In this document: one piece after another, positions 2,027 to 29,896 of the stretch | Layout: every line of letters begins with the position of its first letter | How positions within the stretch are numbered: the stretch's first letter is position 1 | Origin: a virus | Lineage: Duplodnaviria > Caudoviricetes | Strand: one strand, 5' to 3' | IMG/VR virus record: IMGVR_UViG_3300034198_027116 | Span: 1,766-65,765 of that record | DNA length: 64,000 bases | Translations under genes and position numbers: made by a program | Notes under the pieces: model-generated | What the model saw: the letters and a program-made list of their open reading frames with translations, nothing else | What the model was told of the DNA's origin: nothing | Databases searched by the model: none

Positions 2027-2527
2027 ATGACCACCAGCAACGAGATCGTCCCCAGCAGCCTCACCGACATCGAGGGACTGGACACCAACGACCCGGCGGT
2101 TGCCGCGCTGCTCCAGCGCTACGCCGACCTGGAGGCCAAAGCGCAGCGCTCCCCGCGCCAGCGCAAGTCCTTCGGCGAGATGTGGAACAAGCGCATCGCC
2201 ACTCCCGTCGAGAAGATGCCGGCCGGCTACAAGATCATCGTCGAGTGGCTCATCGACGAGGGCCACATCGAGCAGGAGCAGGCCGGGCTGGTGTACGCCG
2301 CCTGCTGGTCGTACCAGTGCGCCGAGGGCAAGGAGGTCCGCCACGCCGGGGGCGCCAGCCGCGAGGCGCTGAAGGAGGCGCGGGAGGCGCTGGAGAAGGC
2401 CGCGCACTCGCGCATGACCAGCCAGCCCGAGGCCAACGCCGACGACGACACCGACGACGACGACATTGAGGACGAGGACATCGACCTCGACGACATCGAC
2501 GACGAGGACATCGACGACGAGGAGTAG
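2027..2527 (+). CDS. acidic-tailed early protein, paralog A
   Basis: AGGAAGG RBS; LDTNDPAVAALLQRYADLE N-terminal motif; D/E-rich C-terminal tail. Confidence 0.85.
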   Translation: MTTSNEIVPSSLTDIEGLDTNDPAVAALLQRYADLEAKAQRSPRQRKSFGEMWNKRIATPVEKMPAGYKIIVEWLIDEGHIEQEQAGLVYAACWSYQCAEGKEVRHAGGASREALKEAREALEKAAHSRMTSQPEANADDDTDDDDIEDEDIDLDDIDDEDIDDEE

Positions 2528-2534
2528 CGCAACC

Positions 2535-2561
2535 GGGGCGGCCGGCAACGCCGGCCGCCCC
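2535..2561 (+). terminator. GC hairpin abutting hammerhead 1
   Basis: GGGGCGGCCGGC-AAC-GCCGGCCGCCCC. Confidence 0.6.
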
Positions 2562-2619
2562 TGCGTCGCCCCGGGGTGGTGCCCGGCGGCCTGATGAGGC
2601 AGCCCTTGCCGAAACGCAG
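2561..2619 (+). ncRNA. type III hammerhead ribozyme (HHR1), predicted cleavage after C2567 (GUC)
   Basis: Stem III CUGCGU/ACGCAG; stem I GCC-CCGGG/CCCGG-c-GGC; core CUGAUGA (2591-2597); stem II GGCA/UGCC; GAAA (2611-2614). Confidence 0.9.
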
Positions 2620-2698
2620 CAACTACCAACCTCCTATGGCCTAGCCGATTGCCGTTTCTGACGGCAATCGGCTAGCGGCCAAGGAGAAGGGAGATGGA

Positions 2699-2929
2699 AT
2701 GGACCCGCAACTGCGAGCGTATTGGGAGATCGCCATTCTCAAGCGCACCTGCGCCGAGCACGCGCAACGCAGGATTCAGCTGGAGCAGAATCGCCTGACG
2801 ATCCGCTCCGCAACCGATCAGATCGGCTGCCGCATCTGGCACGTTCGCGCGCTCCAAGCGACGCGGCGTGCCATTCGTGATTGCGAGCGCGACATCAAGG
2901 AGTGCCTCGGATGCGCGTGCGGCGACTGA
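2699..2929 (+). CDS. hypothetical protein
   Basis: AAGGAGAAGGGAG RBS. Confidence 0.6.
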   Translation: MDPQLRAYWEIAILKRTCAEHAQRRIQLEQNRLTIRSATDQIGCRIWHVRALQATRRAIRDCERDIKECLGCACGD

Positions 2930-3111
2930 TCGAACTCGGACAACTCACGCGCGCAACGGAGCCGGCGCTGGTCGAGCTGTGGCAGCGTCAGCTGGAGTTG
3001 CCCTACCTCGGCGATGCCACGATCGGGATGCTGAAGCTCAGCAACGGCGCGTTGGCAACCAACGTCGAGGCAATCAACGCTCTGGTAAGAGGAGGTCGCA
3101 TCGATGCCTGA
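2911..3111 (+). CDS. hypothetical protein
   Basis: AAGGAG RBS before ATG 2911; fills the operon. Confidence 0.55.
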   Translation: MRVRRLIELGQLTRATEPALVELWQRQLELPYLGDATIGMLKLSNGALATNVEAINALVRGGRIDA

Positions 3112-3703
3112 CATCGAGCGCTGCAACTGCGGCGACGACTGGCGCCGCTGCGACTGCAGCTGCGCGCCAACCGAGAACCCGCAGTTCATCGGCGAGTACG
3201 CGGCCGGTCAGCTGGCCGAGGGCGACGTTGCCGCTCCGTGGATGTACCCGGAGACCGACATCCAGTGCTACCGCAGCGTGCCCTGGTTGTACGCGGACGG
3301 CAAGTTGGAGGACGTACTGCGGCACGACCTGCTGTACGTCCTCAACGACCACCGCGCAACCAGCCTCATCTGGCGTCGCAGGGAAACCTTCGACGGCGAT
3401 GTCTACTGGTTCGCAGCCATGCTGCCCGGCATCCACCACGTGACTGTCGAGCGCATCCCCTGCGTGGCCTACGTGTGGCACCGCATGGTTGACGTAGGCT
3501 TCAGCGGTGAGATCCGCAACCTGCACGAGACAAGCGGCCACGTGATGATGCTGGACGACAGCGAAGCCATCGCCAACGCGGCTGAGATCCAGGCGCAGCA
3601 CAACGCAAGAGCGCTGCCGTTGCTCAACGCAGCGACTGGCGAGGAGCGGCGTGCGCTGGACCGCGCAGCCTACCTCGCCGACATCCTCTCCGACACCAAC
3701 TAG
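3104..3703 (+). CDS. hypothetical protein with N-terminal Cys cluster
   Basis: GGAGG RBS; CNC...CDCSC. Confidence 0.8.
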   Translation: MPDIERCNCGDDWRRCDCSCAPTENPQFIGEYAAGQLAEGDVAAPWMYPETDIQCYRSVPWLYADGKLEDVLRHDLLYVLNDHRATSLIWRRRETFDGDVYWFAAMLPGIHHVTVERIPCVAYVWHRMVDVGFSGEIRNLHETSGHVMMLDDSEAIANAAEIQAQHNARALPLLNAATGEERRALDRAAYLADILSDTN

Positions 3704-3718
3704 AACAGGAGCAAGACT

Positions 3719-4009
3719 ATGCCCAAGAAGCCCCCGAAGCGCACTCGCGAGCGCGACACCCTCAACAAGGCAGCCAAGATGGAGCGCAACCGTTTCATCC
3801 GGGTGGTGCGCGGCGCACGCAAGGTCGGCAACCCCGATCCCGGCTACGGCGCGTGGCGCAACGAGTGGCTCGATGCCACCGAGCACAGCGGCAAGCGGGT
3901 CAACCGCGACGGCCGCATCCTGACCGACCACTCCCAGGTCGTCAGCCAGACGGAGCGGCTGCGCGCCGAGTTCCAGCGCTTCGCCGCACCGCACTTCGGC
4001 CTGCGCTAG
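3719..4009 (+). CDS. basic hypothetical protein
   Basis: AGGAG RBS. Confidence 0.75.
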   Translation: MPKKPPKRTRERDTLNKAAKMERNRFIRVVRGARKVGNPDPGYGAWRNEWLDATEHSGKRVNRDGRILTDHSQVVSQTERLRAEFQRFAAPHFGLR

Positions 4010-4030
4010 CTGCTCAAGCGCGACCCACCA

Positions 4031-4064
4031 GCCCCGGTAGACGGCAACGTCTACCGGGGCTTTC
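4031..4064 (+). terminator. intrinsic terminator-like hairpin
   Basis: GCCCCGGTAGACG-GCAA-CGTCTACCGGGGC followed by TTTCGTGCTTT. Confidence 0.7.
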
Positions 4065-4236
4065 GTGCTTTCTGGGTGCGCGCCGAGGGCTGCTGAGCCT
4101 GGTTGCCGCCCTCGCGCAATCGAAAACGCGCAGATTGCGGACAACGACGCATCCCGCTTTGCGAAAGTGAAAGCCGGTTGTCTTGGTGCGCGCAGTTGTT
4201 GCGTGCTTAGCCAGACGAAAGCAAGTCGTACAGGGA

Positions 4237-4265
4237 TTTCCTTTCTATCGACAGTATGGTATAAT
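4237..4265 (+). promoter_or_regulatory. early promoter P3
   Basis: TTTCCT-17 bp (ending CAGTATGG)-TATAAT. Confidence 0.85.
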
Positions 4266-4347
4266 CTAATCAGACAGAAGAAACGTCTCGCAGATGTACA
4301 ATCCCCGATGCATCCGCTATCACCAATCAGGGGAAGGGAGAACCATC

Positions 4348-4950
4348 ATGTCCAATGTCGACGAGATGCCGGATCTGGATACCAGCGATCCGGCGATCGC
4401 AGAACTGGTTGACCGGCTGGAAGACCTCGAACAGCAGGTGGAGGCCAAGGAGCAGGCCAAACTGGCAAAGGCGAACCGCAAGCGCCCGGGTCAGTCCGTG
4501 CCGCGCATGACGCTCGAGGAGCAGTTCGTCTACGACCTGGCCCTCACCGAGGTGGACGTGCCGGGTGGCCGTCGCCGCGATGCCATCGCGGACGGATACG
4601 CCAAGATCTACGACCTGCTCATGTCGCGCGTGGGCACCGAACTGGAGGAGTACGTCGAGGCCAACGGCTTCACGCTCCAGCTGCTCATGGCAACCATGAA
4701 GGTGTACTACTCCAAGGAGGGTCGCATCGTGCGCGGTGAGCAGCCGCGCGCCAAGGGTGACCAGACCCCGCAGCCGGCCGCTCCGATCGCCACTCCTGGT
4801 CCTACCACGGACGGCAACACGGAGGACGAGCAGCCGACTCAGGAGGCAGACGTTCTCGGCATCGACGCTGACGACATCGGCATCGACCTGAGCGACCTGG
4901 TCGGCGACGACGTGCTCGCCGGCTTCGTGTTCGGCGACGACGATGACTGA
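4348..4950 (+). CDS. acidic-tailed early protein, paralog B
   Basis: GGGAG RBS before ATG 4348; LDTSDPAIAELVDRLEDLE motif; acidic tail ending FGDDDD. Confidence 0.85.
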   Translation: MSNVDEMPDLDTSDPAIAELVDRLEDLEQQVEAKEQAKLAKANRKRPGQSVPRMTLEEQFVYDLALTEVDVPGGRRRDAIADGYAKIYDLLMSRVGTELEEYVEANGFTLQLLMATMKVYYSKEGRIVRGEQPRAKGDQTPQPAAPIATPGPTTDGNTEDEQPTQEADVLGIDADDIGIDLSDLVGDDVLAGFVFGDDDD

Positions 4951-4955
4951 TCGCT

Positions 4956-4986
4956 CGCAGCCGCCCGGCGTTGCCGGGCGGCTGTG
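4956..4986 (+). terminator. GC hairpin abutting hammerhead 2
   Basis: CGCAGCCGCCCGGC-GTT-GCCGGGCGGCTGTG. Confidence 0.6.
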
Positions 4987-5047
4987 GCTTCGCTGGAAAC
5001 TAATCCAGCCTGAACGAGCGCTGGGTAGTTACCAGCCGAAAAGCCAC
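4984..5047 (+). ncRNA. variant type III hammerhead ribozyme (HHR2), predicted cleavage after C4991 (UUC)
   Basis: Stem III GUGGCUU/AAGCCAC; stem I GCUGGA/UCCAGC; core CUGAACGA (one extra nt); stem II G(c)GCUGG/CCAGCC; GAA; loop I AACUA complementary to loop II UAGUU. Confidence 0.75.
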
Positions 5048-5156
5048 GCGTGGACGATCTGGTCGGTACGGGCACTGCCACCCCATTCCTTGGTGAACCC
5101 GTGCGCGTGTCATCGACTGCTATCCAGCGCTCGTTCATCAACCAACAGGAGGGGTT

Positions 5157-5237
5157 ATGCGAATCCAGATGCTGATGATCGGAATCGTGGTGCTAGCGTT
5201 GCTGATCGGCGCCGCAGCCAGCGGCGATAGCAAGTGA
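5157..5237 (+). CDS. 26-aa hydrophobic peptide
   Basis: AGGAGG RBS; MRIQMLMIGIVVLALLIGAAASGDSK; GTGA overlap with next gene. Confidence 0.55.
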   Translation: MRIQMLMIGIVVLALLIGAAASGDSK

Positions 5238-5488
5238 CGAGTGCGGAGATCGTTGCGGAGGAGGCGCCAACCGCTACGATAGAGCCAGTGGTAAAGGAAC
5301 TGGACTCGCGCATCGTCGATACCGACAAGGGTCGCTACAGCGTCAGGTTGCTGTGGCGCAGCACCGACAACACCCTAGTCGTCACGGCGTCAGTTATCGG
5401 TGGCGAGGAAGTCGCCACCCGCAAGGTACCCCGGCACATGGCCAGCGAGGCCATGCGACATCCGGTCGTGTACCTGAACCTCATCTGA
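5234..5488 (+). CDS. hypothetical protein
   Basis: ORF coupled to upstream peptide. Confidence 0.7.
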   Translation: MTSAEIVAEEAPTATIEPVVKELDSRIVDTDKGRYSVRLLWRSTDNTLVVTASVIGGEEVATRKVPRHMASEAMRHPVVYLNLI

Positions 5489-10141: not shown

Positions 10142-10329
10142 CAGTCCTGGGACCCAACGACGATATGCGCATCATCATCGGAAACCGACCGGTGCGACGC
10201 GTCGGCGTGGATGTCTCGTTCGACGAGTTGATGAGCGGGATGATCAACCGCCTGAGCAACCCGCAGCATCGCATCGCAACCCCGCACGTAGATCGCCTCG
10301 GTCGCCCCAAGGCCGAGGACGGTGAGTAG
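10138..10329 (+). CDS. hypothetical protein
   Basis: GGAGG RBS; coupled. Confidence 0.6.
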   Translation: MTVLGPNDDMRIIIGNRPVRRVGVDVSFDELMSGMINRLSNPQHRIATPHVDRLGRPKAEDGE

Positions 10330-10335
10330 GGCGAG

Positions 10336-10509
10336 ATGTTCAACCTACAGGCCGAGGTCTCGGAGTGGCTCGTGCAGATGGTGTTCAAGCATCTGCAGAT
10401 CGACCCCGCAGATCAGAAGGAGTTCAATCGCATCATCACCGATGCGCGGTTCCACGAGACAGTTCTCTACTTACAGGAAGGTCAAGACGATGAACACACC
10501 GCAGGCTAA
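10336..10509 (+). CDS. small hypothetical protein (57 aa, not in the ORF track)
   Basis: MFNLQAEVSEWLVQMVFKHLQID... fills the gap before Ku. Confidence 0.5.
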   Translation: MFNLQAEVSEWLVQMVFKHLQIDPADQKEFNRIITDARFHETVLYLQEGQDDEHTAG

Positions 10510-11338
10510 GGCACCCAGCCGAGCCACCACCACGACCGTGCTAAGCCTCGGGCTAGCCAGCATCTCGGTCGAGCTGCTGACGGGATCGGAGGAGTCGCGT
10601 GTCTCGCGCTCGCAGTTCGTGGTCGTGAGCAGCGACGGCGAGCACCCGCTGCCCGAGTACCACCCGGTCGGTACCAAGCCGTACGACAAGGTCACCGGCG
10701 AGGACGTCAGCCGAGACGCCATCGTCAAGGGTGTGACGGTCGGCAGTGACGTCGTCCTCGTGAGCGACGAGGAGATGGCATCCTTCGGCATGGAGCGCGG
10801 CGAGACTCCCATCCTGGGCTTCGTGCGCCGCGCAGACCTGACCGCCGAGCAGCTGCGCTGGCTGGTCCCCACCAAGATCTACCAGGTGCGCCCCGCCGCT
10901 CTGCGCGTCGGCAAGGACAAGCGCCCCAACCGCTCGGCGCAGAAGCTGTTCACGCTGCTGATGGGATCGCTGGAGCGCAGCGACGCGTGGGCGCTCGTCG
11001 CCCTGACGCTGCGCGACGGCGGCGCCAAGCGGTACGGGATGCTCGACCATCACGGGCGCCTATCCGTGATGGCGTACGCGCAGGATCTGCGCGAGGAGGC
11101 TGACCTGCCGGTGATCGACACCACGGAACAGGAGCAGGCGCTGATGGATCAGATGATCGCCGGCAACGTCCTCTCGGATCTGCCGTCCTTCGACAACGAG
11201 TCCCGCCAGATGCTCGACGATCTGGTGACGCGCAAGCTCAACGGCGAAGAGATCGTGCAGGTCGCCGCCGTGACCGCGACCGAGCAGGAGCAGGATGTCG
11301 CTGAGCTGCTGCGCAAGAGCCTGGGGCTGGACTCGTGA
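10490..11338 (+). CDS. ku: Ku DNA end-binding protein (NHEJ)
   Basis: LSLGLASISVEL, DKVTGEDVSRDAIVKG, ILGFV, YQVRP, DLR...EQEQAL, KLNG...LLRKSL are typical of prokaryotic Ku. Confidence 0.88.
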   Translation: MNTPQAKAPSRATTTTVLSLGLASISVELLTGSEESRVSRSQFVVVSSDGEHPLPEYHPVGTKPYDKVTGEDVSRDAIVKGVTVGSDVVLVSDEEMASFGMERGETPILGFVRRADLTAEQLRWLVPTKIYQVRPAALRVGKDKRPNRSAQKLFTLLMGSLERSDAWALVALTLRDGGAKRYGMLDHHGRLSVMAYAQDLREEADLPVIDTTEQEQALMDQMIAGNVLSDLPSFDNESRQMLDDLVTRKLNGEEIVQVAAVTATEQEQDVAELLRKSLGLDS

Positions 11339-23903: not shown

Positions 23904-24358
23904 CAGCGAGCCAGATTTGCCTCTACCTGCCGGCGAGTGAGCTCGCGCGAACAGGCCTCTGCGTACCGCTTGTGGGCTTCTACCAAGCCAGAGACCATGG
24001 CGTCTGCGGCATCTACCCGCGCAAACTCAGCCTCGATCTGCAGGCGTCGATCGTTGACTCGGTCTCCCCCTAGTTGATCGCCGATAGAACGGAGTCGTCC
24101 TAGCTCGAACTTCAGCGATCGCTTCTGCGCTACGACGATGCCGTGCAAGCTGGTGGTGCGAGCGAACTGCGCCGTGTAGTACGAGTGCATCTCGCCTAGC
24201 TCCAGCAGGCTAACGCTCGTGATGTCGGACGGGAAGGGCATCTCCTCTGCCTCTACCGCGCGCGGGAAGAACAGGCCTAGATCCTCCAGCATCGTCACTA
24301 CCTGGTTGGTGATGGCGTCCAGGTCTCCCACTCCCACTCCGCCCTTGAGCCTCGTCAT
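23903..24358 (-). CDS. helical recombination-associated protein (UvsY-like, tentative)
   Basis: ATG 24358 coupled to the exonuclease stop; ends SRELTRR. Confidence 0.55.
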   Translation of the reverse strand: MTRLKGGVGVGDLDAITNQVVTMLEDLGLFFPRAVEAEEMPFPSDITSVSLLELGEMHSYYTAQFARTTSLHGIVVAQKRSLKFELGRLRSIGDQLGGDRVNDRRLQIEAEFARVDAADAMVSGLVEAHKRYAEACSRELTRRQVEANLAR

Positions 24359-25188
24359 AGCGGCAACTCTCCTTCGATGTAGTCCTTGGTCCACTCGGCG
24401 GCGACGCAGTCGATCTGAAAAGAGCAGGATCGGCAGTCTGGGTTTGCTGGCGCCTGCGGCAGGGGATCCGGCAACTTCTCTGCGTCGTAATAGTGACGTA
24501 ACGCTGCGAGACGAGCCTCCAGAGCGGCCGCTACGTCGGAGTCTGCGTCCACCTTCACCTCTAGGTAGTCCTGCGATCCCTTGTCCTCGTAGAACAGCAT
24601 CGCCTTGTCGATGCCCGACGCCTGCATGTAAGCCAGCAGCTGCATCTGATACGCGCGGTACGGTGCGGCGTCCTGCTTGATCGACGAAAAAACTCGGGGG
24701 TTCGCCCCCTTGATGTCGACTATCCATAGCTCGCCGTCGATCAGCAGCACGCAGTCGATGGTGCCACGAACCATCTGATCTGGCATCTCTACCCCGACCT
24801 CTAGGAGTAGTTCGCCTCCTTCGTCGAGCACGATGCCCGTTCCGGGCACCCAGCTTCCGCGCGCCACCAGACCCATCTCCACGAACAACGCCTGCCACCG
24901 CAGATGGCGCCAGTTACCGTCGAAGAAGATGTTTGCCAACCTCGCGTCTGGCACCTCCTCCTGCGGGTATCCCAGCAGCTGGAAGAACTGTTGCCGCATG
25001 CAGCGATCTAGCCCACTCGCGCTAAAGCTACGAGAACGAGAGCGCGGGGGCTTGACAGCCAACGCTACTATCGCTTGCAAGGTATCGCTGGAGAACTGTG
25101 GAGTACCCAGGCGCAGAAACGCGTCTACTCGGGGCGTCAGCACGTCACCCCGTCGGTGCTGCAGCAGCCTCTTTCTGATGTTACTCAT
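24355..25188 (-). CDS. Cas4-like PD-(D/E)xK exonuclease
   Basis: SASGLDRC, GTID, DIK, Q..AY, CRSC....DC. Confidence 0.85.
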   Translation of the reverse strand: MSNIRKRLLQHRRGDVLTPRVDAFLRLGTPQFSSDTLQAIVALAVKPPRSRSRSFSASGLDRCMRQQFFQLLGYPQEEVPDARLANIFFDGNWRHLRWQALFVEMGLVARGSWVPGTGIVLDEGGELLLEVGVEMPDQMVRGTIDCVLLIDGELWIVDIKGANPRVFSSIKQDAAPYRAYQMQLLAYMQASGIDKAMLFYEDKGSQDYLEVKVDADSDVAAALEARLAALRHYYDAEKLPDPLPQAPANPDCRSCSFQIDCVAAEWTKDYIEGELPL

Positions 25189-25812: not shown

Positions 25813-26881
25813 CAGCTTCGTCTTCTGCGTCGTCGTCCTCGGGTACGCCGTCGTCGCTGTCGTCGGTCATGGGCAGCACGCCGTCGCGGAGTAGGTCATC
25901 GACCATCTGCCCAAGCTCGTCCGGGTTCTCGGCGATCTTCTTGAGCGCCCCCTTGGCGAAGCGCACCCTGTTGTCTCCCCACACGTAGTACTGGCCCTCG
26001 ATCTTGATCAGGCCCATCTCCAACCCGAGGTTCAGGAGCTCGTTGGCCTCGTCGACCAACCCACGCTCCAGGTCAAACAGGAAGATCGCCTCCTGGAAGG
26101 GCTGCCCTACCTTCGACTTCTCGATCTTGGCCTGGATCATCTGAGCAACCTCTACCTTGCCGTTGACGACCTTGCCACCTCTCCAGCGCTTGCGCTCTTC
26201 CTTGATGGTCTCGATGCGGCTAAAGCGCACGCGATGAGTCGCGTAGAAACCGAGAGCCTTTCCGCCCGGCGCGCGCACCGGAGACCCAAACATCACTCCC
26301 ACCGCTTCGCGTAGCTGGTTGATGCAGATCAGAATCGAGTCGGTGTTGGCGCTCGTCAACTTGCGCATCGCCTTGCTCATGAGCGCGGCCTGGCGCGCCA
26401 TCGTCTCCTCGCCCATGCGCCGTTCGGCCTCGGCCTTTGGGACCAAGGCAGCGATGGAGTCCACGACGATGATGAAGTCCCCCTGCAGCAACAGCTGCTC
26501 GATCACGTCGAGCCCCTCGTCACCTCGCAGCGAGCGATCGATGAGCAGCAGGTTCTCTACGTCTACCCCCAGCTGCTCGGCGCGTTCCGGCTCGAAGCTA
26601 CCCTCTAGGTCGTAGAACGCGGCTCGCATGCCGGCGGCCTGAGCGTTTGCGATCGCCTTCAGGGAGAAGTAGGTCTTCAGGGTGGATAGCTCGCCGGAGA
26701 ACTCCACCGTGCGCCCCTTGACGAGGCCACCTCCGAGCGCGCGGTCTAGGGAGCGCGAGCCCGTTGAGACAAAGTCGAGCACGATCTCAGAGGCTCCCAC
26801 GAGAACGTCTCGCTTAGCTCCGCCCTCCTTCCGATAGAAGTCATTGATCTGCTTACGCAGGTCTTCGATGTCAGCTCTCAC
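25805..26881 (-). CDS. recA: RecA/UvsX recombinase
   Basis: STGS..LD.ALGGG, GELSTLKT, VVDSIAAL, INQLR, PGGKALGFYA. Confidence 0.95.
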   Translation of the reverse strand: MRADIEDLRKQINDFYRKEGGAKRDVLVGASEIVLDFVSTGSRSLDRALGGGLVKGRTVEFSGELSTLKTYFSLKAIANAQAAGMRAAFYDLEGSFEPERAEQLGVDVENLLLIDRSLRGDEGLDVIEQLLLQGDFIIVVDSIAALVPKAEAERRMGEETMARQAALMSKAMRKLTSANTDSILICINQLREAVGVMFGSPVRAPGGKALGFYATHRVRFSRIETIKEERKRWRGGKVVNGKVEVAQMIQAKIEKSKVGQPFQEAIFLFDLERGLVDEANELLNLGLEMGLIKIEGQYYVWGDNRVRFAKGALKKIAENPDELGQMVDDLLRDGVLPMTDDSDDGVPEDDDAEDEADE

Positions 26882-29555
26882 CGTGATTCTCCTTTGCTGT
26901 CTTCTTCTTCTGAGCGGTTAGCTCGGCCACCGCGTCTACCAGAGCCTGCTCGTCCTCGATTCCGAGGCTAGCTAGGGCGCGGGCGCGAGCCAGCTTCTTG
27001 AGCACGCCGACGTTGCACGCGGTCGGGCTCACGTTGTTACGCAGTTCTTCGAGAGAGTGGAAGGGGCGAGCGGCAGCGATCGCCTGGGCTGCCTTCTCGC
27101 CTACCCCGCCTACCGACGTGAGGCCGCGCCGAAGTGCCGTACCCTCGATCTGCCAGGTGACTCCCGACCGCATGATGCAGGCCGGCAGCACCTTGATGTT
27201 GTCCTTGCGAGCCAGGCGAACGTACAGCTGCTGATCGGTCTTGGCCGTCTGGGTCTCGAGCGTTGCGCAGTAGAACTCCAGCGGGTGGTTGGCCTTCAGA
27301 TAGGCCATGCGGTACCCGAAGCGTGCGTATGCGTACGAGTGCGAGCGGTTGAAGCCGTATCGGGTGTAGCCCTCCATCAGCTCCCAGAGCTGCTCTACTA
27401 GGTCGGGCTCCTTCTCGGCGATGCGCCGACGCACCTCAGCCATGAGCGTGGCGTCCTTCTTCTTGACCGCTCGCAGCATGGTCATCACGTCGTCGGCTGA
27501 AAATCCCAGGCCCTTCATCACCTGGATGACCTGCTCCTGGTACACCGCGATGCCGTAGGTCTCCTTGAGCACCGAAGCGAGCACGGGATGCCAGCTATCC
27601 GGCGGCACCCACTTGGCAGCTCGTCGATCTAGGTAGAGCTGCTCGAGGCCTAACTCTAGGCACGACGGGCGCCACATGGCGGCTACGAGTGAGCAGTCAT
27701 CGATGTTCTTCGGCTTGAGCAGCTTGCATCCCTTCTTGGCCGACCATCCCTGGAACGTAAAGACTCCATCGGTATCACCACGCCCGATCAACTTGATGGT
27801 CTCTCGGTCGCGCTCAGGAATCCAGTTCCAGTCTCGCTTCTCCATCAACTCTAGGCAGCGGCGAACGGTGCGCAGGCTGCGAACGCCCAGGATGTCCACC
27901 TTTACGAATCCCAGAGATTCGATCGCATCCATGCTGTACTGCGTTACCCAGCGATCAGACGACGAGATCATCATCATGGGAACCAGGTCAGCTACCGGGC
28001 GACGCGCCGTCTCGGCGATGACGCCCGCGGGGTGCCCACCGAAGGCTCGCTTGAGCCCTGTGATCTTAGAGAGCATCAGCCTACCTCGCTCACTATCGAG
28101 GGCGTCGTCGTCGGTCTCGAGCTCAAGCGCGGGGTTCTCCCGCTTGAGCTGTGCAGCTATCTCGTTGCGCGCGGATCGATCTGCGTAGGTCAGGTTGGTG
28201 CCGATCTGCGTAGTGGCAAAGCGGCGCGACACGTACTCGAGCACCTCGTCGCGCCGATGATCTTCCACGTCTAGATCGATGTCCGGCGGCTTAGAGCGAT
28301 CGTTCGACAGGAATCGCTCGAACAACAGCTTGTGCTCGATGGGATCCATCTGAGTGATGTTGAGCAGGTGGCACACCAGCGAACCACTCGCCGAACCGCG
28401 GGCGATTACGAAGATATCGTTGTCCTCGCAGAACTTGACGATGAGGCGTACCAGCAGGAAGTACTGGGCGAAGCCGGTATCGCGGATCACCCCCATCTCG
28501 GTCGCGTAGCGCTGACGGTAAGCCTCGCGCTTCGAGGCTGGAGCTGACTCCACAAGGGCCTTGAGCGGAGGCTGGGTGATGGCGAGCAGCGCTCTTAGCG
28601 CGTCGCCCTCGACGACCTCTGGAACCTCGTAGGAATAGGTATCCAACGGCGGGAAGGACATGCCGGAGCAGTCTGCGCGAAGGGCGTCTAGACCGCGAAG
28701 GGCTTCGGCGAATCGCGTCGCTCCGAGCTGCTGTTCAAGCAACTCTGGGCCACAGAGGTGAAAGCCGGTCGTGCCGTTGAACTGAGCCCCGCTGGCCTTC
28801 TTGTAAGCCAATCCCTTGAAGAAGTTATGCACCTCGAGATCATCTGGTTCTAGATAGTGCACGTCGTGCGCGGCGATTACCGGAATGGACAGGCGCTGAC
28901 CGAGGTCCCAGAGGTAGTCGACCACCTGGTCGTCTTCCTCGATGCCGTGATGCTGAAGTTCGATCGCGAACCGCTCGCCGTATAGGTCGCGGTAGTGGCG
29001 CGCTCGCCGCTCGGCGTGTTCCTCGCGTCCCTGGATGATGAGTTTGGGGATCTCGCCGTTGAGACACCCCGTCGTTAGCCATACGTGACCGCCCTGAGCC
29101 AGTTCTTCGATGTCGGAAAACTGAAAGAGAGGCTTGAAGTAGCCCTGCTGAAATGATCTACTAGCCGCTCGGCACAACATCTGGTAACCGGTAAAGTCTC
29201 TCGCCATCAGCAGGCAGTGACGACGCATCTTGGCCGCCTGCCCAGCGACCGTGGTCGCGTGCTTGCGCTGGCCGTTCTCCCTAGCCTCCTTGTTTATCGC
29301 GTCGGTCTTCTCCTTGGCGAGAGCGCGGTGCTCTTCGACGTCGGGAACCATGTAGGCCTCGATGCCAAGGATGGGTAGCACGTCGAAGCTTCTGCAGGCC
29401 TGATAGAACTCCACGCATCCCGCCATGGTGCCGTGATCGGTCAACGCCATGGCGGGCTGACCCATCTCCGCGGCTCGCTTCGCCGCCTCCTTGATCCTGA
29501 GGATCGCATCGTTGACGCTGTACTCAGAGTGAAGGTGTGAGTGAAAGAAGCTCAA
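26871..29555 (-). CDS. dnaE: DNA polymerase III alpha subunit (DnaE-type; PHP + polymerase + HhH)
   Basis: HLHSEYS, ALTDHG, RGSASGS, FERFL, PDIDLD, KVDILG, YQEQ, YGFNRSH; TTG start at 29555. Confidence 0.95.
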   Translation of the reverse strand: MSFFHSHLHSEYSVNDAILRIKEAAKRAAEMGQPAMALTDHGTMAGCVEFYQACRSFDVLPILGIEAYMVPDVEEHRALAKEKTDAINKEARENGQRKHATTVAGQAAKMRRHCLLMARDFTGYQMLCRAASRSFQQGYFKPLFQFSDIEELAQGGHVWLTTGCLNGEIPKLIIQGREEHAERRARHYRDLYGERFAIELQHHGIEEDDQVVDYLWDLGQRLSIPVIAAHDVHYLEPDDLEVHNFFKGLAYKKASGAQFNGTTGFHLCGPELLEQQLGATRFAEALRGLDALRADCSGMSFPPLDTYSYEVPEVVEGDALRALLAITQPPLKALVESAPASKREAYRQRYATEMGVIRDTGFAQYFLLVRLIVKFCEDNDIFVIARGSASGSLVCHLLNITQMDPIEHKLLFERFLSNDRSKPPDIDLDVEDHRRDEVLEYVSRRFATTQIGTNLTYADRSARNEIAAQLKRENPALELETDDDALDSERGRLMLSKITGLKRAFGGHPAGVIAETARRPVADLVPMMMISSSDRWVTQYSMDAIESLGFVKVDILGVRSLRTVRRCLELMEKRDWNWIPERDRETIKLIGRGDTDGVFTFQGWSAKKGCKLLKPKNIDDCSLVAAMWRPSCLELGLEQLYLDRRAAKWVPPDSWHPVLASVLKETYGIAVYQEQVIQVMKGLGFSADDVMTMLRAVKKKDATLMAEVRRRIAEKEPDLVEQLWELMEGYTRYGFNRSHSYAYARFGYRMAYLKANHPLEFYCATLETQTAKTDQQLYVRLARKDNIKVLPACIMRSGVTWQIEGTALRRGLTSVGGVGEKAAQAIAAARPFHSLEELRNNVSPTACNVGVLKKLARARALASLGIEDEQALVDAVAELTAQKKKTAKENHGES

Positions 29556-29896
29556 GACTGGATCGCCCGGAGCACGCACAGTCCCGTAAGCGCGCCGCCG
29601 AGAGCGAGAAAGCCTCCGCCTACTCCCCAGATGGCAGTCGCCCCCGCAGCAAGAGACATCGTCGCAGCCAGTCCATAGAAGTGGCTGTGCTCGGTCATGC
29701 GAGCCTGGCGATCTCGATGGTACTGGATGCTGTCGTCCAGCTGACGCTTGACGTCGTAAACACTTTCGGTGCATGCCGCGCAGGCGGTGACCATCCTGTT
29801 GTCACCGTTCCCGGTGGGGAGGAGCATGAAGGTCAAGCGCTCCTCCCCACCGCAGAACTGACAGGCGATCCCAGTGGGCTCGTCGTCTTCGTCCAT
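29552..29896 (-). CDS. zinc-finger membrane protein
   Basis: CQFC...CAAC; C-terminal hydrophobic helices. Confidence 0.6.
   Translation of the reverse strand: MDEDDEPTGIACQFCGGEERLTFMLLPTGNGDNRMVTACAACTESVYDVKRQLDDSIQYHRDRQARMTEHSHFYGLAATMSLAAGATAIWGVGGGFLALGGALTGLCVLRAIQS

Follow-up and report, generated by a model that had tools for sequence, protein, structure and literature searches.

Hammerheads are the best-studied self-cleaving RNAs, yet to our knowledge what they do in phages and bacteria is still poorly understood. In phages and prophages they lie between genes, arrangements of several hammerheads cut polycistronic RNA, and about 40% of hammerhead representatives use a pseudoknot between stems I and II (Perreault et al. 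2011, PMC3088659). The same survey also describes a natural core variant, A6a, in which a nucleotide is inserted after A6. The one example of it that was tested had low activity, put down to U4 no longer contacting the A6–N7 phosphate (PMC3088659). A divergent hammerhead-like cluster is reported to be missed by all six Rfam models, so misses by Rfam are to be expected, and the available portion of that preprint makes no mention of a core insertion (10.64898/2026.10.21.760802). Our limited search of the open-access literature found descriptions of neither a conserved CUGANNGA hammerhead nor a competing helix conserved alongside a phage hammerhead.

The element described here, HHR2, resembles the phage type III hammerheads covered in the 2011 survey (PMC3088659) in its three-stem junction, its GAAA, its A15.1–U16.1 and G10.1–C11.1 pairs and its NUH site. 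It also resembles the multi-hammerhead arrangements given there, being intergenic within an operon, with a second hammerhead a few kilobases away in the same direction. Unlike the type III elements described in that source, HHR2 has an additional nucleotide in the core box, a bulged C and a conserved distal strand that can pair with the core; it further differs from phage type III hammerheads in being unscored by any Rfam hammerhead model. The additional nucleotide lies between A6 and G8, as in A6a. Unlike A6a, for which the survey gives a single tested example, the HHR2 insertion (AC) recurs, together with the bulged C, in two phages that have diverged.

HHR2 was found in a window of 64,000 bases, the whole stretch of DNA analysed, which corresponds to bases 1766–65765 of a 65,765-base IMG/VR virus record and has a G+C content of 63%. 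A tail sheath, a baseplate, a tape measure, a large DNA polymerase, a DnaB-like helicase, a UvsX-like recombinase and a Ku-like protein are encoded in the window, and from these we assign it to a contractile-tailed phage. DNA searches of a phage GenBank collection, in near and distant modes, returned no relative of the genome. The closest phage match of the tail sheath is just 27.7% identical, so no known phage genus is usable for comparison. Bases 1–21,000 carry small plus-strand genes, the majority of which, among those scanned, are without a PHROG match.

All features discussed below lie on the plus strand. HHR2 (4984–5047) occupies a 206-base gap between the end of one gene at 4950 and the start of a small open reading frame (ORF) at 5157. 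The upstream gene, taken from the ORF list (4345–4950), encodes a protein of unknown family with an acidic C-terminus and is a paralogue of the gene at 2018–2527; neither product has a PHROG or Pfam assignment. Directly past the stop codon, sequence and folds give a GC-rich hairpin of about 11–12 bp (4958–4984), the final G of which doubles as the first base of stem III. This hairpin has no U-tract, and the terminator scan gave no terminator-like site there. A scan of 2400–5400 likewise found no sigma-70-like promoter and no U-tract terminator, which fits a long co-transcript. On the other side of HHR2, a strong ribosome-binding site (RBS), AGGAGGGG (5147–5154), precedes the small hydrophobic ORF of 26 codons (5157–5237), the stop codon of which overlaps, as GTGA, the GTG start of the gene at 5234–5488. 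The small ORF probably encodes a membrane peptide and is probably coupled in translation to this 84-aa gene. We also considered whether the intergenic region itself codes for protein. The candidate ORF at 4943–5230 was rejected, because comparison with the ORF at 1113–1379 of a related locus, L004, gave common blocks of nucleotides only, in diverging frames.

The coordinates and all HHR2 pairs were verified by script on the window sequence. The 5' strand of stem III, GUGGCUU (4984–4990), forms seven Watson–Crick pairs with 5041–5047, the innermost of which is A15.1–U16.1 (A5041–U4990). Its position relative to stems III and I identifies C4991 as C17, with cleavage of the UUC triplet predicted between 4991 and 4992. 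Stem I is a hairpin of 6 bp (4992–5009) in which 4992–4997 pair with 5004–5009 around loop I, AACUAA. It is followed by the core box CUGAACGA (5010–5017), which reads as CUGANGA plus one nucleotide at or next to position 7. The stem II hairpin (5018–5037) is built from G5018–C5037, equivalent to G10.1–C11.1, then bulged C5019, then five pairs between 5020–5024 and 5032–5036, and is capped by the loop GUAGUUA. The element is completed by GAAA (5038–5041, with A15.1 at 5041) and the 3' strand of stem III (5041–5047). The first-pass annotation of this DNA had reported three well-formed stems, two nucleotides at core position 7, a bulged C after G10.1 and a UUC cleavage triplet, all of which the script-checked pairs reproduce (7 bp in stem III, 6 bp in stem I and 1+5 bp in stem II). 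It had also stated that a strict CUGANGA pattern would miss the element, as indeed the spacing of CUGAACGA does not fit that pattern.

Judged against the features that define hammerheads, both the window and L004 have the three helices in type III order and G12-A13-A14 followed by A15.1–U16.1. The N-U-H site, in which position 17 is not G, reads UUC in the window and GUU in L004. G5018–C5037 supplies the G10.1–C11.1 pair, with an atypical bulged C adjoining it. The exact CUGANGA spacing is absent, since an extra nucleotide lies between A6 and G8, while the seven named nucleotides are all present. On these grounds HHR2 is placed in the hammerhead family (Rfam clan CL00010) by its architecture, and it departs from the family in two formal respects, the exact core spacing and the Rfam score.

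No hammerhead match to HHR2 was returned by the search at gathering score, by a 251-base search of 4900–5150 at E <= 10, or for the related loci L003 and L004 at E <= 5. A canonical type III hammerhead, HHR1, is present in the same genome at 2561–2619, with CUGAUGA at 2591–2597, GAAA at 2611–2614 and C17 at 2567, and its minimum free energy (MFE) structure is the hammerhead fold. Rfam Hammerhead_II scored HHR1 at 30.2 bits over 2543–2608, under the gathering score of 37, and RF00008 missed it completely. Because RF00008 misses even the canonical element, the silence of Rfam is weak evidence in this genome. As a control for chance, a descriptor, CUGA-N(1-2)-GA, was run on both strands of the real 65,765-base genome and on 300 dinucleotide-preserving shuffles of it. 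The real genome gave two matches, HHR1 and HHR2. The shuffles gave 0.017 canonical and 0.02 variant weak matches per genome, and none of the 300 contained a match with at least 5 bp in stem I, 5 bp in stem II and 6 bp in stem III, so that HHR2 is not a product of chance.

HHR1 lies 2.4 kb upstream of HHR2, 3' of the gene at 2018–2527 and its 12-bp GC hairpin (2535–2561). The two elements are placed alike: in each case a stop codon is followed by a GC hairpin without a U-tract and then by the ribozyme, and the last base of the hairpin falls within stem III. The products of the two upstream genes (2018–2527 and 4345–4950) share 28% identity (E = 1e-5) and strongly acidic C-terminal tails. These parallels suggest that a module of gene plus ribozyme was duplicated, and the matching placement makes it more credible from the outset that HHR2 is a true hammerhead. 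A separate feature of the HHR1 region is a long near-perfect hairpin just past the ribozyme (2630–2687), the outer arms of which pair CCUCCU with the AGGAG of the RBS of the next gene, which starts near 2696–2699. According to this pairing, the hairpin could gate translation of that gene. It is present in the fold of 2528–2705 and is also the source of a spurious mir-34 match on the minus strand.

Six relatives of the upstream protein (4345–4950), at 56–65% identity, were found in public metagenomes. The comparative evidence comes from one independent relative, represented by the metagenome loci L003 and L004, which count as one because their contigs differ at 1 of 718 compared bases. L004 has the gene order of the window: a homologue of the upstream gene, the intergenic region, the small hydrophobic ORF (about 1318–1398) and a homologue of the 84-aa gene. 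Identity to the window is 60% for the upstream protein and 43% for the product of the 84-aa gene, and the small ORF is 26–27 codons long across the two phages. The L004 intergenic region also opens with a GC hairpin, one that differs from that of the window; the hairpin at 4958–4984 has counterparts both in L004 and beside HHR1.

Within this relative, the core CUGAACGA, the bulged C and GAAA are kept exactly, and the block CCUGAACGAGCGCUG is unchanged. The stems around them have been rewritten. Stem III of L004, CUUUCGUGU/ACACGAAAG, has 9 bp compared with 7 bp in the window, has no sequence in common with it, and is followed by U17 (GUU). Stem I is GUCGG/CCGAC in L004 and GCUGG/CCAGC in the window, a difference of two double compensatory changes, and bears an additional apical hairpin. 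In stem II, one G–C pair has become A–U by a double change and one pair has been added. Compensatory conservation is thereby seen for stems I, II and III, in one independent relative. A variant core that stays constant while its surroundings are rewritten with pairing kept is the opposite of what a decaying ribozyme would show, and the core, bulged C, GAAA, NUH site and stems kept in L004 speak against the decayed copy that the first-pass annotation had proposed as the outcome if HHR2 were inactive and not conserved in relatives.

Further relatives were sought in several ways. Searches of viral_contigs with the upstream protein, the tail sheath, a 7-sequence alignment (A1) and an alignment of the 84-aa protein gave no further relative, two DNA patterns built from blocks common to the window and L004 gave nothing in viral_contigs, and a search of genome_contigs with alignment A1 also gave nothing. 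A loose DNA pattern matched at least 120 stretches in genome_contigs. Structural filtering of the 122 loci listed (L003–L124) left L003 and L004 alone as convincing. Three others were set aside as chance matches: L067, a weak canonical-core match spanning 118 nt, and L088 and L106, which have stems of 4–5 bp and a sequence resembling a conserved coding segment. In the latter two, the block CTGAACGAGCGC (282–352) lies inside a likely conserved protein-coding segment of bacterial genomes, and its occurrence in such coding-like segments is a warning of false matches for any search with a CUGANNGA descriptor. Among sequencing runs, no RNA run was listed for the region; contigs from three DNA runs of one study, one of which may be the source of the record, contained no variant within 4984–5137.

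Loop I and loop II of HHR2 are complementary, AACUA (4998–5002) with UAGUU (5026–5030), giving five Watson–Crick pairs. L004 has five Watson–Crick pairs of different sequence, GCCAC/GUGGC, of which two use the closing pairs of apical stems; the strict loops leave three. Shuffling of the loops gave p = 0.038 for the window, 0.013 for L004 with closing pairs and 0.17 for L004 with strict loops. The complementarity in the window is by itself only modestly unlikely. Of the 5-bp pseudoknot proposed in the first-pass annotation, the exact complementarity stands and is replaced by new pairs in the relative, whereas its full length there does not hold under strict loops, and with three pairs at p = 0.17 we regard the support as moderate overall and as weak in L004 when loop nucleotides alone are counted. 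If it forms, the contact of about 5 bp joining the ends of the two stems, with covariation between the two phages, would liken HHR2 to the pseudoknot hammerheads described in the survey (PMC3088659). It is unlike pseudoknot hammerheads in that loop II has the distal strand as a third, likewise conserved partner, and in that the loops of the window can extend a rod-like fold.

The conserved anti-ribozyme helix is the most interesting part of the locus, and one that was absent from the first-pass annotation. Folds of the whole intergenic region from the window and from L004 give the same long-range helix, of 19 bp in each. In the window, a distal strand (5119–5137) pairs with 5011–5029, a segment that runs from U4 to A9 of the core through the 5' strand of stem II and takes in most of loop II. 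RNAalifold over 18 aligned columns gave 11 pairs identical, 5 changed on one side, 2 changed on both sides and none broken. G5024 illustrates how both folds are maintained: it is A in L004, where its stem II partner C5032 and the distal-strand C are both U. The helix contains G–U pairs, which would be mismatches on the minus strand, and this points to selection acting on the plus-strand RNA. The 19-bp helix and the hammerhead fold, which draw on the same strand, are mutually exclusive. The distal strand ends 10 nucleotides upstream of the RBS AGGAGGGG. Folding of 2528–2705 gave no anti-ribozyme strand for HHR1.

Enclosed by the long-range helix is a structured middle domain (5045–5110), given by the consensus fold and by compensatory changes relative to L004, among them the double change from GUACGGG/CCCGUGC to GUACGAG/CUCGUGC. 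It matched no Rfam family, and might bind a factor or a ligand. A strand with two exclusive partners, both maintained by compensation, is like the pairings of terminators and antiterminators and like engineered aptazymes. The P1 helix of a typical riboswitch is far shorter than 19 bp, which makes one-way kinetic or post-cleavage refolding likelier than a reversible switch. Any switch in HHR2 would reside in the distal strand, and not demonstrably in the core deviations, to which the first-pass annotation had attributed a possible slower or switchable behaviour. That suggestion has some backing from the low activity of the natural insertion after A6 (PMC3088659) and from the conserved alternative helix, which would disable the core.

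Folding energies, which omit the tertiary and pseudoknot contributions of the hammerhead, differ between the two phages. For the 64-mer of the window, the MFE structure is a rod at -33.9 kcal/mol (z = -6.07), compared with -23.9 kcal/mol for the hammerhead secondary structure. In the rod, stem I pairs with stem II, and the nucleotides of the putative loop–loop pseudoknot become part of one long hairpin. Transcription prefixes of the window also fold as the rod and not as the hammerhead, and by these calculations the window's own hammerhead fold appears weak. For the 81-nt element of L004, the MFE structure is the hammerhead three-way junction, which also remains the lowest-energy fold of each transcription prefix for as long as the distal strand is unfinished. 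Over the full leader, the hammerhead-constrained and alternative folds are at -93.9 and -110.4 kcal/mol in the window and at -112.0 and -117.9 kcal/mol in L004, where the gap is 5.9 kcal/mol.

These results bear on what HHR2 is. The rod, as the lowest-energy structure both of the 64-mer and of the prefixes transcribed from the window, and the GCUGG/CCAGC common to stems I and II, through which they can cross-pair, would suit a long imperfect hairpin or palindrome that serves as an RNase III-type processing site, a terminator-like 3' stabiliser or a protein-binding DNA palindrome, the likeness to a hammerhead being incidental. We consider this improbable. In L004, stems I and II bear no relation to each other, which leaves the rod unable to form, and the three-way junction is the MFE; the core letters are exactly conserved where a rod would have merely an apical loop; and no U-tract lies downstream. 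Less probable still, to the point of being very hard to sustain, is a chance match or a recently decayed, functionless copy of a ribozyme. Simple hammerhead descriptors do match by chance in large databases, as the survey points out (PMC3088659), and the missing Rfam match would agree with this. Set against it are the shuffles, none of which gave comparable stems, and the variant core and bulge that are identical in a relative with compensated, rewritten stems; the same rewriting counters a recent transfer of the segment to L003/L004.

A more serious competitor, though one we hold to be rather unlikely, is an element derived from a hammerhead and catalytically crippled, in which selection keeps a two-state leader that alternates between local hairpins and the 19-bp helix. 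Such a leader would govern either the stability or the translation of the small ORF downstream, or would be a factor-binding element. The low activity of the published natural insertion after A6 (PMC3088659) agrees with this reading, as does the alternative fold, which is the thermodynamic minimum in both phages. Moreover, CCUGAACGAGCGCUG, the block with the strongest conservation, doubles as a strand of the long-range helix, so its conservation could stem from that helix alone. What this reading leaves unexplained is stem III, the non-G at position 17, C3 and the GAAA register, which are maintained without having a role in the alternative fold and for which a purely structural leader would have no need.

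We therefore favour, as the probable though by no means certain explanation, a variant type III hammerhead with a CUGANNGA core, a bulged C and a putative Watson–Crick loop–loop contact, conserved in a phage group and serving in self-cleaving mRNA processing as part of a two-state leader. We infer its self-cleavage, the timing of this and the role of the alternative helix from the anatomy and from what is established about hammerhead chemistry. During transcription of the operon, the hairpins of stems I and II would form, their loops would kiss and stem III would close, upon which the RNA would cut itself after C4991. The 5' product would end in the 12-bp GC hairpin plus 7 nucleotides and carry a cyclic phosphate, and the 3' product would begin with a 5'-OH on the nucleotide that opens the stem I hairpin, a hairpin that appears in the fold of 4992–5165. 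The distal strand (5119–5137), transcribed about 70–90 nucleotides later, would sequester the core together with the 5' strand of stem II, with the unpaired core nucleotides acting as a toehold.

The resulting 19-bp helix would be the hammerhead-off state and most likely confines cleavage to a co-transcriptional window of time. After cleavage, stem III would depart with the 5' product, shifting the balance to the 19-bp helix and preventing re-ligation, and the downstream leader would probably be locked as a compact structure before the RBS of the small membrane-peptide gene. HHR1 and HHR2 would jointly release a 2.4-kb segment, much like the multi-hammerhead arrangements that cut polycistronic RNA in prophage regions (PMC3088659). 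A weak point of this explanation is that a ribozyme which works slowly might seldom cleave when a 19-bp competitor appears within seconds.

A bolder version of the favoured explanation, which we put forward tentatively as a possibility more doubtful than the self-cleaving hammerhead itself, is that HHR2 is a hammerhead gated by nature and the first to have an anti-ribozyme strand that is both built in and conserved, in which the 15-nt block CCUGAACGAGCGCUG is dual-coded for the core and stem II and for the competing helix. If so, cleavage of the operon RNA would be decided by a race or a signal; how fast transcription proceeds or whether it pauses, the loading of ribosomes on the small ORF and the binding of a factor to 5045–5110 are the candidates. 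The additional core nucleotide and the bulged C would then owe their retention to their effect in setting the ribozyme's rate or the toehold for competition.

What is found of hammerheads is set by strict CUGANGA descriptors and Rfam models, and a core-insertion variant that selection has maintained in two diverged phages suggests that functional members are missed. HHR2 offers a natural test case for how far the uridine-turn region tolerates an additional nucleotide. The competing helix is a testable hypothesis for how a phage might time or limit ribozyme cutting in an operon transcript, and the leader that contains it suggests a route to protective end structures on both cleavage products.

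Elsewhere in the same genome, a Ku-like DNA-end-binding protein (10322–11338), a Cas4-domain exonuclease (24355–25188) and a large DNA polymerase (26871–29774), the last of which matches phrog_405 (E = 2e-202), make up a replication and repair set that is unusual in a phage without close known relatives.
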